Origin: Bacilli bacterium
GTDB lineage: Bacteria; Bacillota_I; Bacilli_A; ML615J-28; CAG-313
Length of the DNA stretch: 64,000 nt
Direction: 5' to 3'
Assembly: GCA_017501465.1 (NCBI GenBank)
Contig: JAFVWY010000018.1
Coordinates: forward strand, 77,829-141,828
Of the stretch, positions 19,529 through 39,915 are shown piece after piece; the stretch's first letter is position 1, and every line of letters begins with the position of its first letter. The notes under the pieces are model-generated. The model made no database searches, was not told the DNA's origin, and was given only the letters and a program-made list of their open reading frames with translations. The translations under genes and the position numbers were made by a program.

Positions 19529-22500
19529 ATGAAAAAAGTTAGAATTTTATTAACGTCTGTTTTCGCTTTAGTTTTAGGCCTTTTCCTTGTTGCATGTGAA
19601 GGCGCACCTGTTCATCAACATACATTAGTATTTAATGAAGCAGTTGAAGCAACATGTACTGAAAAAGGTACAATTCAACATTATGAATGTACAAAATGTG
19701 AAAGAATTTACTCTGACATTGAATGCACTAATCAATTAAAACAAAGTGAAATTTATGTAGAAGCATTAGGACATACTTTAAAAGAAGTAGAACATGTTGC
19801 TCCTACTTGTAAAACTGAAGGTAACATTCACTATTATGAATGTGAAACTTGTGGAAATTATTATGAAGATGAAGCAGCTACAATTGTTTTAAGTGCTAAT
19901 GATGTAGTTATTCCATGTTCTGCTCATGAAGGTCTTGTTGAAAGAGAACAAGTTAATCCTGATTGTGAAAATGATGGTGTTATAGCTCATTTCTATTGTG
20001 CTGTTTGTGATAGAACATATAAAGATGCTGAAGGCTTTATAGAAATTAAAGGTGCACAATTAGTTATTCCAGCACTAGGACATGAATTAAAAGAACATGC
20101 TGCAGTTAGTGCAGATTGTGAAAATGCTGGTAACGTTCATTATTATGAATGTGAAACTTGTCATAAATATTATGAAGATGAAGCTGCAACAAAAGCATTA
20201 ACAGCAGAACAATTAGTAGTACCAGCACTTGGTCACAGTGTTGAATATCATGCTGCAATTGCTGCTGATTGTGAAAATGCTGGTAAAGTAGCTTATTACG
20301 AATGTAGTGTTTGTCATAAATATTTTGAAGATGAAGCTGCAACAAAAGCATTAACAGAAGAACAATTAGTAGCACCTGCACTTGGTCACAGTGTTGAATA
20401 TCATGCTGCAATTGCTGCTGATTGTGAAAATGCTGGTAAAGTAGCTTATTACGAATGTAGTGTTTGTCATAAATATTTTGAAGATGAAGCTGCAACAAAA
20501 GTATTAACAGAAGAACAATTAGTAGTTCCTGCACTTGGACATTCTCTAGTTCATCATGCAGAAGTTCCTGCAGTTGTTGGTAATCCTGGTTCTGCTGAAT
20601 ATTATCAATGTTCAGTTTGTGGTAAAGTATACTTAGATCAAGAAGCTACAGTTGAAACTTCATTAGATGAATTAACAAGATATGCTTATTTAATTAGTAA
20701 AAATGATGCTGCTACAAGTGGTTATTATATTGATTATACTGATTCTAAACATACATTTGTTGATGCTGAAAATAATGGTGTTTTCGTATCTAATAATAAA
20801 GGTGTAAATAGTGCTACTGCATATATGCATTTATTCTTTACATCAAGTGGTGTTGTATCATTTGATTATTCAGTTTCATCTGAAAGTGGATGGGATAAGA
20901 TGACTATTTATGCTTCAAACAATGGTGAAGCATATCGTGCTATTGTTAGTGGTATTTCTGGTATTCAATCAGGTAGCCAAACTTTAGTGGTTAATGCAGG
21001 TGATTATATTTACTTCCAATACAGTAAAGATAGTAGTGGAAATAAAAATGATGATATCGCAACTATTTCAAATATCGTATTTGTAACTGCTGATGTATAT
21101 GTTAAATCTGTATTAACATTTAATGCTAATGGTGGTGAAGAAGTTCCACAAATTGAAGCTTATGATGGCGTTGCTTTAACTGCTCCTGAAGCTGTGAAAG
21201 ATGGTTATTTCTTTGATGGTTGGTATACTGATGATACTTTAACTACTCCATTTGATTTTGCTGCTGGTTTACATGGTAATGCTACTGTTTATGCTAAATA
21301 TACAAAAGGTGTTAATGTAAGTTATGCTAATACTCAAGATTCTACAGTTGAATCTGAATTAGTAAGACCAAATTCAGCAGTAACTGTTCCTTCAGTTATT
21401 CCTACATCTTCAACTCAATATTTCAAGGGTTGGTATGTTGATGAAGCATGTACAGAATTATTTGATTTTGAAGCTGGCGTAAGTGTTGATACTGTTGTAT
21501 ATGCTGGTTGGAGAAACCCTGTTGTTTTATCTTTTGAAGCTAATAATGGTTCTACAATTGAAGCTATTTCTACAGATATTAATGTAGCTATTACTATGCC
21601 AAGTGATCCAACTAAAGATGCTCATAAATTTGCTGGTTGGTATGTAGATGAAGCTTGCACAATTGCATTTGCTCCTGAAAATGGTATTACAGAAGATACT
21701 ACAGTTTATGCTAAATGGTTAGCACAAGTAGAAGTAACATTTGTATTTAAGGGTGAAGTTGTTGGTACTCAAAAGGTTGACAATGGATCTGAATATTCAA
21801 TCGTTAATCCTGAAGGATTTGGTGAAATTATTGATGGTTGGTTCACTGATGAACAATTTGCAAATGAATATGTCGATGGTACTGTTTTAGTAGAAGGTAT
21901 CACTTTATATGCTAAACCTCATGCATTTGCTCCAGAGGGTGTATTAGTAAGCTTTGTCAATGGTGATGGTTCATCTAAGACTAAATATCCATGGATTTAT
22001 GATGTGGCAACTAATACTTTCTCATCAAGTAATCAAACTGTTGGAAGTAGTTATTCTACATTAGAAATTACTTTTGCAAAACAATCATTTGTTTCATTTG
22101 ATTACTTAGTTAATAGTGAATCTAATTATGACTTTATTATCGTAACTGTTAATGGAACTCAAGTATTATCTACTAAAGTTTCTGGCTATAATGGAAAAGA
22201 TGTATCTGGTTCATTTAGTGATACATTTGAAGCTGGTGATGTGGTTGTTATTCAATACAAGAAAGATAGCAGTGGTAACCAAGGTACAGATACAGCTACT
22301 ATTTCTAATTTAATAATTAACGATGGTGTTCCTACACTTGATATCGTTTTAGATTACCAAGATGAAGCTGTTGCTGATGTAACTGTTCAAACTGGTATCA
22401 ACACTACTATTAAAGATATTGAAAACTTTGAAAGTTATGCTCCTGCTGATACAGATGCAAGACATTTCGGTGGATGGTATTACGATGCTGAATGTACTCT

Positions 22501-36150: not shown

Positions 36151-39100
36151 ATGTTTAAAAGAATTTCTTTATTTATAATTACTTTTATATTAATTTTTAC
36201 TGTAGTTGGATGTACAATGGGTCCATCTACTCAAAATAAAGATGAAAAGTATACAGTTACATTTGAATGTGAATTTGAATGTGAAATTGAAAGTGTTCAA
36301 GTTAAAAAAGGCGAATTGGTAGAACAACCTGAAACTAATGAACATGAAGGATATATATTCCTTGGTTGGTATAACGGCAAAGTTCTTTGGGACTTTGAAA
36401 AAGATACTGTTACCAAAAATATTACTTTAACAGCAAAATGGGAAGAACATACTCATGAGTTTGTTGAAGGCGAATGTGAATGTGGTGAAAAAGATCCAAA
36501 TTACGTCCCACCTCATGAACACGTATTTGTTGAAGGTGAATGTGAATGTGGTGAAAAGGATCCAAATTACGTTCCACCTCATGAACATGTATTTGTTGAA
36601 GGTGAATGTGAATGTGGTGAAAAGGATCCAAATTACGTCCCACCTCATGAACATATATTTGTAGAAGGTGAATGCGAATGTGGTGAAAAAGATCCTAATT
36701 GGAATGCTCCTGTTGTAGGTGACCCATTTACAATCACTTATCAATTAAATGGTGGTGCATGGTCATGGACTACTGGTAGTGTTAGCGCTCCTGCAAAAGG
36801 AATTGATTCAATATCAAATTTACCAGAAATATTCATGGCTGATTTCTATACATATTTATATGAAAATAATTTATTAAATTCATCTAAAGTTTCAACTAAA
36901 TTACAAGTAGCAACATGGGATGCGTTTAGTACACCAAATGGTGACCCAGTAGCTTTATATAATGCAACATCTACTGGTGGATATGGTGCTGCTGATGGTT
37001 ATAGTGAATTATTCTTTGATAGTGTTAATGGTTATGAAGCAGTTGGCGGATTCTTAGGAACAAGCCCTTATAAAGAAAAATACGCTAATGTTACGAAACA
37101 TATTATTCAATTAACAACTGCTAGATATTCAATGGCTACAACATCTGCAAGTTTCAAGGGTGCATGTGGATTTGTCCTTGATGGATATTTCTATGGAACT
37201 CAAGGTTTACTTGCAACTGATAAAGCTAATGCTGAAACATTTAATGCCTTACGTGCAGTTATTCCTACTCCAACAGTTGGTTATGTAGGAAGCACATCAT
37301 CTACTAATTCTTATCAAATATCAACTGGAAAAGTTGGGACTTTAGTTAAATTAGTAGCTCCTGTTAAAGAAGGTTATATGTTCTTAGGTTGGTATGAATC
37401 ACCAGATTTTAGTGGCAATGAAATTGATTCAGTTTCTAAAGAAACTACTCTATATGCAAAATGGTATGATTTAAGTTCTCCGGCTCCTAAATATAATATT
37501 AACTATGAATTAGATGGTGGAACTAATCCAAGTACAGCTCCTAAACAATATACTTTTGGTCAAGGCGCTGAATTAGTAGAACCTACAAAAGATGGCTATA
37601 TGTTTATGGGTTGGACAACAGATGCTGAAGGTGAAAACCTTATTACTTCTATTTCAAAATTTGCAGAAGGTGAAGTAACAGTTTATGCAAATTGGGTTGA
37701 AATTGATAAGAATTTATATACAATTACATATATATATTCAGATGGTAAATTACCAACTTATAATCCAACTACGATTCAAGAAGTAGCTGAATATGTATTT
37801 ACTGAGTATTATAAATGGTATAAACCAAGTGATGATTATGAAACATTTAAATCTAAAGTAATCGCTCAATGGAAAGATAAACAAGCTCAAGGTATTTATA
37901 AATTCTATAAACAAAATGGAAAAGATACTATTGATGAATCATATTTCTGTAATGCTTCTGAAAACTTTGAAGAATGGAATGCATGGTTTACAGTCTTCGA
38001 TTCTTTAGTAACAAAAGCAAATGGTGCACAAAATGCATGGAATAGTTACGTTGGTATTTTAAGACTTGGTCAAGTATTAAGTGGTAACGCTCCAACTACT
38101 TGGAAAGCAGACTTTAATACAACTTTATGTAATGCAACTAATATTGCAATTCCTCTAGTTACGGAATATAGACTTGGTCAAGAAGTTGAGCTTGTTGAAC
38201 TAGTAATTGATGATGGCAGAACTTTCCTTGGTTGGTATGATGAATTTGGTAATAAAGTTGAAAAGATTACATCAACTACTGAAGGTAATCTTGTATTAAC
38301 TGCTAGATGGAGTGAAGCAGTTCCTGTTGATTCATTTAGTATTACAAATCCTATTGATAGATTATTAAAATTATCTGACTATCAATTAACTTATAGTATT
38401 GGTCCTTCAAATGCAACGTTCAAGAAAGTTACATTTGAATCAACAAATCCTAGTGTATTAAAAGTTTCTGAAAAGGGTTTATTAGAAGCTGTAAGTTGTG
38501 GTACTGCAAAAATCTTAATTACAGTTCATGGTAACCAAGATTTAAATATGGAACTTGAAATTGAAGTTTATGTTGATCCATTTATTCGTGGTGAATTTAT
38601 GGAAAACTCATATGTTGTAGCTGGTGAATCTGTTCAATTAGGTGCAACATTAGTTGGTGCAAATACTACTAATTTAGTGTGGAAATCAAATACACCTTCT
38701 ATCGCAACTGTATCTCAAACAGGTTTAGTAACTGGTGTTAATGAAGGTCTTGCTGAAATCGTAGTTTACTGTGTTGATAATGATAATATTGCTTTTACTT
38801 TCTATGTAACTGTATTTGATAGTGAACCTACTGGTATTTTAAAATTATTAGCAGATAGCAACAATTCTGAAATTTATACAAAGAAAGATTTATTGATCGG
38901 TATTAAGATTGGTTCTGATGGTGCTTATTATTCTGATATCATAGGTAGCGTATCTAAATTATTATTTGAAGACTATGTTGTTCATGATGATTATTATTTA
39001 GCAAACCCATCTAATAAATCAACATTAAATGGTGATGGTAAAGGTGGAATTGATTTCATTACTGTTCACTATGCTGCTGATATGCCATATGCTCCATCTG

Positions 39101-39915
39101 CAACATTTAATGGTGGTAAAAACTTAGCTTCATACAACCAATCTTGTAATAGTAGTGGTACACAAGCTTCATGGCATTATAGTGTTGGTAATGACGGTAT
39201 TTGGTCTTGTCAAAATGAAAGTTATGGTGCATGGCATGCTGGTGCAAGCAAAAAAATGACTTGGGTAGATAGTGGTCTTACAATTCATGATGTTGGTAGT
39301 GATTTATATACTACTGATGTAACAATGGGTACAGATGGCTATTTCTATATTAAAGGTGTTAAAACTAACATTAAGAATACTTCAGGTGGTACTAAACTAA
39401 ATGGTCTAGGTTTAGGTGTTAAAGTAGAAGGTAATACAGTATATCTTGGTGGTCATTATCAAAATACATCTTATAACTATATCTCATCAACTGGTGGTAA
39501 TAATAACTCGATTGGTATGGAAACATCAGTTAGAGAAGGTTCAGATTTATGGTTAACATGGCAATATACTGCTCAACTTTGTGCTAAGTTATTAATCAAA
39601 TATGAATTACCACTTAATAGACTTGTTGGTCATCATTTCTTCTCTGGTAAATGGTGTCCACAACCAATGTTAGAAAATGATTTAGAAATCTGGTATGAAT
39701 TTGTTGAACTTACAAGACAACAAATGGAACTATATCAAAACTATTCTAACTATCAATTATCATTTACATCTAATAGTCAATATTTAGATGATAATGGTAG
39801 AGTAAAAGAATTACCTGATTATACACAATGTGTAACTTATACAATTACTTATAGTGATGGTGTAACTACAAAGACTGTTACATTCTCATCTATTCTTCCT
39901 GGTAATTTAGAATAA
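36151..39915 (+). CDS. Large surface lipoprotein (1254 aa): Flg_new (Listeria-Bacteroides) repeats, 4x22-aa Cys-rich tandem repeats, Big_2 domain, and a C-terminal N-acetylmuramoyl-L-alanine amidase (Amidase_2/PGRP)-like domain
   Basis: Lipobox VVGC|TMG. Flg_new at 'HEGYIFLGWYNGKVLWDFEKDTVTKNITLTAKW', 'GYMFLGWYESPDFSG', 'GYMFMGWTTDAEGEN', 'RTFLGWYDEFGN'. Big_2 'VLKVSEKGLLEAVSCGTAKILITVHG'. Amidase_2 motifs 'IDFITVHYAAD', 'ASWHYSV', 'AWHAG', 'NNSIGMETS', 'LVGHHFFSGKWCP' at about 39040-39700. Confidence 0.75.
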   Translation: MFKRISLFIITFILIFTVVGCTMGPSTQNKDEKYTVTFECEFECEIESVQVKKGELVEQPETNEHEGYIFLGWYNGKVLWDFEKDTVTKNITLTAKWEEHTHEFVEGECECGEKDPNYVPPHEHVFVEGECECGEKDPNYVPPHEHVFVEGECECGEKDPNYVPPHEHIFVEGECECGEKDPNWNAPVVGDPFTITYQLNGGAWSWTTGSVSAPAKGIDSISNLPEIFMADFYTYLYENNLLNSSKVSTKLQVATWDAFSTPNGDPVALYNATSTGGYGAADGYSELFFDSVNGYEAVGGFLGTSPYKEKYANVTKHIIQLTTARYSMATTSASFKGACGFVLDGYFYGTQGLLATDKANAETFNALRAVIPTPTVGYVGSTSSTNSYQISTGKVGTLVKLVAPVKEGYMFLGWYESPDFSGNEIDSVSKETTLYAKWYDLSSPAPKYNINYELDGGTNPSTAPKQYTFGQGAELVEPTKDGYMFMGWTTDAEGENLITSISKFAEGEVTVYANWVEIDKNLYTITYIYSDGKLPTYNPTTIQEVAEYVFTEYYKWYKPSDDYETFKSKVIAQWKDKQAQGIYKFYKQNGKDTIDESYFCNASENFEEWNAWFTVFDSLVTKANGAQNAWNSYVGILRLGQVLSGNAPTTWKADFNTTLCNATNIAIPLVTEYRLGQEVELVELVIDDGRTFLGWYDEFGNKVEKITSTTEGNLVLTARWSEAVPVDSFSITNPIDRLLKLSDYQLTYSIGPSNATFKKVTFESTNPSVLKVSEKGLLEAVSCGTAKILITVHGNQDLNMELEIEVYVDPFIRGEFMENSYVVAGESVQLGATLVGANTTNLVWKSNTPSIATVSQTGLVTGVNEGLAEIVVYCVDNDNIAFTFYVTVFDSEPTGILKLLADSNNSEIYTKKDLLIGIKIGSDGAYYSDIIGSVSKLLFEDYVVHDDYYLANPSNKSTLNGDGKGGIDFITVHYAADMPYAPSATFNGGKNLASYNQSCNSSGTQASWHYSVGNDGIWSCQNESYGAWHAGASKKMTWVDSGLTIHDVGSDLYTTDVTMGTDGYFYIKGVKTNIKNTSGGTKLNGLGLGVKVEGNTVYLGGHYQNTSYNYISSTGGNNNSIGMETSVREGSDLWLTWQYTAQLCAKLLIKYELPLNRLVGHHFFSGKWCPQPMLENDLEIWYEFVELTRQQMELYQNYSNYQLSFTSNSQYLDDNGRVKELPDYTQCVTYTITYSDGVTTKTVTFSSILPGNLE
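36448..36711 (+). repeat. Four tandem 66-bp repeats encoding H(T/E)H(E/V/I)FVEGECECGEKDPNYVPP
   Basis: Direct DNA repeats with only silent or near-silent differences (cacgtatttgttgaaggtgaatgtgaatgtggtgaaaaggatccaaattacgttccacct ...). The fourth copy is diverged at its 3' end. The minus-strand ORFs 36422-36744 in the track are repeat by-products. Confidence 0.9.

Follow-up and report, generated by a model that had tools for sequence, protein, structure and literature searches.

In the mollicutes, the Vlp proteins of Mycoplasma hyorhinis and the Vsa proteins of M. pulmonis are lipoproteins of low G+C organisms in which the number of in-frame repeats alters the size of the protein; these repeats are short, of low complexity and located in the distal C-terminal part, and expression is switched by homopolymers in the promoter or by site-specific inversion. 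A second group, the Periscope Proteins (SasG/Aap, Rib/alpha C, Sgo_0707 and CdrA; Whelan et al. 2021, PMC8201768; PMC9704523), comprises surface-anchored proteins in which small folded tandem domains, encoded by similar DNA, form a stalk between the anchor and other domains; strains differ by whole in-frame units, a variation presumed to be driven by homologous recombination or slippage. For Cys/His modules of the M64 immunoglobulin A (IgA) protease of Thomasclavelia ramosa, the term 'metal-associated periscope domains' was proposed by the authors who described them (PMC12237041, PMC12415215). Here, we describe a gene located in a stretch of 64,000 nucleotides (nt) from a Bacilli bacterium (contig JAFVWY010000018.1, positions 77,829 to 141,828 of the forward strand), referred to as the window. 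It encodes a predicted surface lipoprotein of 1645 amino acids (aa), in which seven tandem Cys/His units follow the lipid anchor. We consider it likely that this array is a Periscope-type stalk with an N-terminal lipid anchor, which changes its length by recombination and projects domains resembling carbohydrate-binding modules (CBM) and InlB B-repeats.

Repeat array and domains of the lipoprotein

The window has a G+C content of 28%, and its lipoprotein is identical to the NCBI entry MBR2892060.1 ('InlB B-repeat-containing protein [Bacilli bacterium]'), which originates from a metagenome-assembled genome (MAG). The N-terminus, MKKVRILLTSVFALVLGLFLVAC, carries a canonical lipobox (L-V-A-C), and the mature protein is predicted to start with Cys23 (19595-19597), which would carry the lipid. 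A lipobox was present in every full-length orthologue compared; the surface attachment that characterises Periscope Proteins would be provided here by the predicted lipobox at Cys23. The array begins at aa 27, four residues past this cysteine. The gene comprises the following features:

19529..24466 (+): gene for surface lipoprotein, 1645 aa, from the list of open reading frames (ORFs) and the translation
19529..19597 (+): lipoprotein signal peptide with lipobox L-V-A-C, as read from the sequence
19607..19762 (+): unit 1 (aa 27-78), array-initial type with H-x-H ahead of the module; positional orthologue in the related protein P0002
19763..19912 (+): unit 2 (aa 79-128)
19913..20071 (+): unit 3 (aa 129-181), more diverged than any other, longer by one residue and with C-S-A-H replacing L-G-H
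20072..20224 (+): unit 4 (aa 182-232), 81% nt identity with units 5 and 6
20225..20377 (+): unit 5 (aa 233-283), with 3 differences from unit 6 in 153 nt
20378..20530 (+): unit 6 (aa 284-334)
20531..20680 (+): unit 7 (aa 335-384), array-terminal type with Val in place of the first Cys
20681..21106 (+): jelly-roll (CBM-like) domain, copy 1 (aa 385-526), directly after the array, from AlphaFold2 and Foldseek
~21917-22333 (+): jelly-roll (CBM-like) domain, copy 2 (~aa 797-935)

Tandem Repeats Finder placed a single array (score 746) at 20096-20538, with 2.9 copies of period 153, 92% matches and no indels; in the translation, seven units of 50-53 aa span aa 27-384 (19607-20680), all in frame with the gene. 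Units 5 and 6, compared directly, are 98% identical and differ by 20349/20502 C>T, 20373/20526 C>T and 20374/20527 A>T. Against these two, unit 4 has 29-30 differences in 153 nt, and the outer units have 62-105. Folded tandem domains encoded by long similar DNA repeats, as known from Periscope Proteins, are present here in a weaker form than in canonical cases, as nt identity amounts to only 31-59% for the outer units. The unit motif is H-x11-C-x10-C-x2-C, and the distances from knuckle to knuckle along the seven units are 51, 52, 51, 51, 51 and 51 aa. An ORF of 142 aa on the minus strand (20106-20534) lies wholly within the repeats; it has no support as a gene and has probably arisen because the repeated sequence is poor in stop codons.

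The original prediction, which was made from the letters of the window without database searches, had described a giant lipoprotein gene with in-frame 153-bp repeats, three differences between 20225-20377 and 20378-20530, a close third unit at 20072-20224 and more diverged outer units, and in all of this it was right. It had started the array at unit 2 and left unit 1 outside, so that six instead of seven units were seen. The proposed invariant pattern C-x(14-15)-C-x2-C has to be corrected in both respects, as the spacing is C-x10-C-x2-C with a His 11 residues upstream and unit 7 lacks the first Cys. A unit length of 51 aa does not hold uniformly, as the units comprise 50-53 aa.

The domain that follows the array (aa 385-526) was modelled by AlphaFold2 as a beta-jelly-roll with high confidence (pLDDT, the predicted score in the local distance difference test, 92.8; predicted template modelling score, pTM, 0.87). 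Foldseek matched it to CBM32, CBM61, CBM29, CBM35, gingipain adhesin domains and MAM (E ~1e-5, template modelling score, TM, 0.4-0.5). Pfam gave a weak sub-threshold match of copy 1 to DUF6911 and none for copy 2. Both copies share the strongly conserved motifs SSE..DK and KD.(S/G)G. From the models, the jelly-rolls are likely ligand-binding heads. Five stretches after the first jelly-roll region scored above the cutoff of Flg_new (PF09479, InlB B-repeat; 162.1 bits), and the protein also matched TIGR02543 (57.3 bits); the Flg_new match describes the middle of the protein and not the Cys/His repeats. The C-terminal 570 residues had no Pfam match.

Gain and loss of whole units

All alleles were compared as contigs assembled from short-read metagenomes. 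A protein of 1594 aa (P0001), exactly 51 aa less, falls into the same 90%-identity cluster as the window protein and is encoded on a 130-kb contig (L001, sample ERZ27256844) and a 104-kb contig (L002, ERZ27256852). Over 24.8 kb and 16.3 kb, respectively, these contigs have no mismatch to the window apart from a single in-frame deletion of 153 nt, which fuses the head of unit 4 with the tail of unit 5. Another contig (L004, protein P0123) carries a second six-unit allele, in which unit 4 is intact and units 5 and 6 are fused at their identity of 124 nt, as in a collapse-type product. The two junctions fall into exact repeats of the window:

20173..20204 (+), again 20326-20357: 32-nt exact repeat TGAAGATGAAGCTGCAACAAAAGCATTAACAG, deletion junction of the six-unit allele of L001 and L002
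20225..20348 (+), identical to 20378-20501: 124-nt exact repeat, junction of the second six-unit allele (L004, P0123)

The 32-nt core of the first junction is flanked on the left by unit 4 sequence (...AAATATTA followed by TGAAGATG...) and on the right by unit 5 sequence (...TTAACAG followed by AAGAACAATTAGTAGCACC). Joining units that are 81% identical through an identity of 32 nt, it is not the product of collapsing a near-identical pair. Furthermore, both exact repeats are shorter than the assembler k of 141, and a de Bruijn graph at k = 141 cannot make a 32-nt join unless the reads contain it. The seven-unit state was found on four contigs and is also present in P0002 (72% identical), whose units are mutually more diverged; an assembly expansion is therefore unlikely. 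The L004 allele was given less weight, because its 10-kb upstream flank contains one mismatch and the contig ends in unrelated DNA. This end (L004:12766-12885, corresponding to the window from 22447 onward) departs abruptly into 120 nt of unrelated sequence and cuts the gene to 937 aa; either a chimera at the end of the contig or a genuine rearrangement could account for this.

The same type of difference was found in a second species, whose orthologue is 53% identical to the window protein. Two contigs (L033, L031) encode 10 units and four (L027-L030) encode nine, and they are free of mismatches for up to 16 kb, the one exception being a deletion of 147 nt with an 81-nt junction. In-register exact repeats of this array reach 81 nt at most, and L033 and L027-L030 are all k141 contigs from samples with neighbouring accessions. 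When orthologues were clustered at >=90% identity, the numbers of units per cluster were as follows:

Window's cluster: 7 and 6 units
P0006 cluster: 10 and 9 units
P0007 cluster: 10, 9 and 13 units
P0008 cluster: 5, 6, 7 and 8 units
P0010 cluster: 7 and 6 units
P0011 cluster: 7 and 6 units
P0002 cluster: 7 units only (6 full-length members)
P0003 cluster: constant among full-length members (11 among those listed)
P0009 cluster: 7 units only (15 members among those listed)

Overall, the count ranges from 5 to 13 across orthologue clusters, and repeat number varies among close strains as it does in Periscope Proteins. Copy-number variation, so far a suggestion of the original prediction, is hence borne out by seven- and six-unit alleles in otherwise base-identical DNA, by the second species and by the clusters. 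It is a variation of size and not an on/off phase switch, because steps of 153 nt always keep the frame.

Four pairs of proteins (P0121/P0001, P0007/P0151, P0007/P0153 and P0006/P0146) differ by one unit without a single substitution over ~1,600-1,730 residues, which indicates that units are gained and lost faster than point substitutions accumulate; the breakpoint of P0007/P0153 is different from that of P0007/P0151. In P0161 (1923 aa, 13 units), a block of three units is duplicated, with units 5-7 and units 8-10 agreeing throughout the 45-aa core that was compared, so that expansions occur besides deletions. P0011, encoded at locus L006 (gene 6001-10803), has three short units of 39 aa (C-x10-C-x2-C-DYTT...) that lack the strand and helix after the knuckle, and the difference between seven and six units in its cluster is one such 39-aa unit. 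For units 1 and 2 and the final unit, the best-matching unit occupies the corresponding place in the array of another species, whereas for central units it lies within their own protein. This pattern is the signature of concerted evolution by repeated unequal exchange or gene conversion.

In P0013, P0014 and the cluster of P0013 (P0217-P0223), the Cys/His array is replaced by a Cys-free N-terminal region of ~380 aa; the bodies of P0013 and P0014 align with ~54% identity over 76% of the query. This swap of a whole module in P0013 fits an interchangeable spacer.

The Cys/His module and its predicted zinc sites

Scanned alone, the array matched the Pfam family RYYR-CCHC (PF23674) with 35.9 bits at a gathering cutoff of 27, while the full-length window protein reached 17.7 bits. 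The orthologues P0002, P0005 and P0006 scored 39.1, 44.2 and 32.3 bits, respectively. The alignment of the array covers only profile positions 31-52 of 79 (31-62 at most across the proteins scored). More distant array proteins match DUF7128 (PF23447) and DUF7129 (PF23455), and literature searches on RYYR-CCHC, PF23674, DUF7128 and DUF7129 found no paper. Weak Pfam and PDB matches to C2H2 zinc fingers (zf-met, zf-C2H2, Aart, PRDM9) were rejected as compositional, as they comprised CxxC...H only and no significant stretch. The module occurs widely, with more than 1,000 proteins matching the query; the 120 matches listed include arrays of 2 to ~35 units and co-occurring LRR, Big_2, S8 peptidase, SLH and dockerin domains.

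Among solved structures, a related sequence is present in one entry alone, 9qa6_A (T. ramosa IgA protease), which was detected by phmmer (E = 1.1e-4) and, at chain residues 851-910 (ZBD1 = CTD2), by a profile of 38 three-unit segments (E = 2.9e-11). The array is thus homologous to the IgA-protease modules. These ZBDs are within the 9QA6 construct but unresolved in the structure, and their zinc binding is predicted, with the sites placed at the interfaces of subdomains (PMC12237041); CTD2 was seen by small-angle X-ray scattering (SAXS) as a fully extended rod (PMC12415215). Units 4-6 were modelled by AlphaFold2 (mean pLDDT 95.1, pTM 0.67), and an identical set of short strands with a single short helix recurs in every unit. 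The pTM for three units is compatible with a defined arrangement of the units in the model. By analogy with the IgA protease, the modules are probably zinc-binding and may form a rigid rod. The idea of the original prediction that each unit is a metal-binding mini-domain thereby gains indirect support from the homology to the predicted zinc-binding domain ZBD1/CTD2 and from the conserved H, C, C and C. Its suggestion of a zinc-ribbon fold could not be upheld: each unit has a single CxxC knuckle, and Foldseek of the three-unit model against the PDB gave nothing better than E = 0.5.

Conservation of the ligands was analysed in 1,129 units from 117 proteins (P0002-P0121). The conserved positions are H(-23) with 76%, C(-11) with 90%, C(0), C(+3), F(+7) and D(+9), where C(0) and C(+3) are at 100% by construction, being fixed by the search pattern for units. 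The units hence possess the conserved Cys/His ligand set that marks the IgA-protease modules. The ends of the arrays deviate from this pattern. Among 108 units without the first Cys, 99 are the last of their array, and H-x-H occurs in 29% of first units versus 4% of others (odds ratio 10.6, p = 4e-31); it is found in all 12 orthologues with a first unit among those listed. Compensation for the absent first Cys within the last units was considered and rejected, as no position is enriched in His, and a cross-unit model was adopted for this reason. In this model, each zinc would be bound by the first Cys of one unit together with the His and the CxxC of the next. The first unit, which has no upstream Cys, would use its second His, and the first Cys of the last unit, which has no partner, would be lost. 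The model, derived from sequence comparison, agrees with the published placement of sites at interfaces (PMC12237041). With cross-unit sites, any in-register deletion or duplication would leave every site complete.

The resulting ligand rule for the module in more than 1,000 large secreted proteins, namely H-x-H at the start, predicted Cys3His sites in between and no first Cys in the last unit, is new relative to the papers found. One can speculate that the array acts as a chain of metal staples, in which the number of units would set the length and the availability of zinc in the gut could set stiffness or extension; we regard this as unlikely. If true, it would represent a metal-gated surface stalk of tunable length that is widespread in proteins of Firmicutes, with arrays of up to ~35 units.

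Alternative readings, gene neighbourhood and known systems

According to the stalk reading introduced above, the seven Cys/His modules, likely zinc-stapled, would form a stalk rooted four residues from Cys23 that holds the two jelly-rolls, the InlB-type B-repeats and the C-terminal beta domains off the membrane. Recombination or replication slippage between in-register units would remove or add whole units of 153 nt (51 aa), the frame would stay intact and strains of one clone would differ in stalk length. One unit should contribute ~3.7 nm, as estimated from the ~110 Å model of ZBD1 in the T. ramosa IgA protease, which comprises three subdomains. The distal domains may bind ligands, as their models suggest, and the change in length may be of selective value.

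Several observations weigh against this reading. Every allele comes from short-read metagenome assemblies, and the junctions are known at the assembly level. Near-identity is limited to two of the window's seven units, while canonical Periscope arrays contain many such units, and several clusters are invariant (P0002 with 6 full-length members; P0009 with 15 among the members listed). Zinc binding and rod shape derive from homology to domains that are themselves only predicted, with SAXS as the one measurement for CTD2. The fold matches of the jelly-rolls are modest (TM 0.4-0.5), which makes ligand binding by the distal domains putative, and the differences in length could be mutational noise rather than the result of selection.

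If the shorter alleles were collapses or mis-joins of short reads, the true copy number would be constant. The data consist of short-read metagenome contigs throughout, L004 shows exactly the collapse-type junction expected for units 5 and 6 (124 nt) besides its unrelated 120-nt end, and several cluster members are fragments, as expected for contig breaks in or near the gene. Against this, the 32-nt junction between units of 81% identity was recovered in two samples, the longest repeat of the second species (81 nt) is below k = 141 with both alleles assembled as k141 contigs, and expansions (13 units by block duplication; 8 versus 7) are not producible by collapse. We therefore judge an assembly artefact to be very improbable. 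A different view would be size or antigenic variation in the style of the Vlp/Vsa proteins, where the exposed repeats themselves are selected through recognition by antibodies or phages or through steric shielding. The protein is indeed a lipoprotein of a Bacilli bacterium with 28% G+C that displays very large lipobox proteins from five genes in a row, its unit number changes faster than point substitutions occur, and immune evasion is among the effects of repeat loss in the Periscope review (PMC9704523). This view is rather unlikely, however, since the units are not short and of low complexity but folded conserved Cys/His modules (pLDDT 95) common to many unrelated secreted proteins, and since the array adjoins the membrane under ~1,260 residues of other domains and is thus the least exposed part of the protein. 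In addition, an altered count of identical units makes no new epitope, and no switch element (invertible promoter or homopolymer) was seen upstream.

The array might also be the working part of the protein, either a multivalent binding surface or an extracellular device for zinc binding or sensing, with copy number tuning avidity or metal capacity. Seven predicted metal sites per chain would suit such a role; among the matches listed, arrays of the same module reach ~35 units and fill most of some proteins, seemingly beyond the need for a spacer, and further functions including zinc regulation were left open by the authors of PMC12415215. In the published models, on the other hand, the Cys/His sites are fully coordinated and leave no position open to exchange or bridging (PMC12415215), and the homologous domains are dispensable for catalysis by the IgA protease (PMC12237041). 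The units vary freely outside ligand and core positions, and in P0013 an unrelated module takes the place of the array while the body of the protein is kept. A working array appears improbable on these grounds, and the Periscope-type stalk remains the reading that we prefer.

The gene is the last of five lipoprotein genes arranged head to tail (3347-24466) with gaps of 1-30 nt. No promoter-like site was seen just upstream of 19529, and the gene is apparently transcribed together with the lipoprotein genes that precede it. Two elements lie downstream:

24472..24494 (+): terminator-like hairpin of 10 pairs followed by a T-run, six bases past the stop codon
24537-24565: strong promoter-like site (11 of 12) preceding rpsF-ssb-rpsR

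Other species keep this gene order at their orthologous loci. Scanning the window against Rfam and for tRNA genes gave no matches. The row begins with a gene (3347-10846, plus strand) for a lipoprotein of 2499 aa, in which eight LRR blocks of the BspA type are combined with subtilisin S8, PA, Fn3_5 and Big_2 domains; a partial match to the SGO_0316/0317 serine-peptidase model (252 bits) is far under the model cutoff. Elsewhere in the window, 36151-39915 (plus strand) encodes a protein of 1254 aa with a lipoprotein-like N-terminal signal, four Flg_new and two Big_2 domains and an N-acetylmuramoyl-L-alanine amidase (Amidase_2); by its domains, it looks like a surface-displayed peptidoglycan hydrolase.

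Orthologues of the array protein (35-72% identity) are confined to MAGs and contigs of uncultured gut bacteria, mostly from goat, water deer, giraffe and other fecal samples, with one weaker match from a human-gut MAG collection. A scan of Joint Genome Institute (JGI) metagenomes for an exact 41-mer of unit 7 gave 0 matches; a protein-pattern scan yielded one true orthologue from giraffe (size class of 1776 aa and 10 units) and many unrelated Flg_new proteins.

In comparison with the Vlp and Vsa proteins, the lipoprotein has folded modules of 51 aa adjoining the anchor at the N-terminus, and no switch element was seen; the traits that define the Vlp/Vsa type are not those of this locus. With ZBD1/ZBD2 of the T. 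ramosa M64 IgA protease (= CTD2/CTD4), it shares the motif H...C-x10-C-x2-C...F.D, the secondary structure of subdomain I (three strands and a short helix), the position of the modules next to the anchor and the presence of InlB-B-repeat-like domains in the same protein. The IgA protease differs in having blocks of two or three non-identical subdomains, for which no copy-number variation is reported, instead of a varying array of seven units; its modules are C-terminal, before the sortase motif, and mostly His2Cys2, whereas those described here are N-terminal and mostly of a predicted Cys3His type.

Periscope Proteins are the closest counterpart in behaviour. The lipoprotein resembles them in its surface anchoring, in small folded tandem domains encoded by similar DNA, in whole-unit in-frame differences between strains, in the location of the stalk between the anchor and other domains and in recombination or slippage as the presumed driver. 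It is unlike them in that an N-terminal lipid anchor replaces the LPXTG or outer-membrane anchor, so that polarity is reversed, in that the module is a Cys/His unit of ~51 aa, probably zinc-dependent and without a classical hydrophobic core, and in that only the central two to three units are highly similar, with a small range of 1-4 units per 90% cluster. Lipoproteins are not mentioned in either of the two Periscope papers (PMC8201768, PMC9704523). The module family (Pfam, IgA protease) and the Periscope principle (PMC8201768, PMC9704523) are already known; canonical repeat-number variation of this Cys/His module, in an N-terminally lipid-anchored protein, is new. A module known until now just as a predicted 'metal-associated periscope domain' of one IgA protease gains the behaviour that defines Periscope Proteins, the gain and loss of whole units. 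Comparing the junction with the k-mer size also allows length polymorphism of surface proteins to be read from existing metagenome assemblies. The Periscope class is thereby extended to N-terminally lipid-anchored proteins of uncultured Bacilli from the gut of herbivores.

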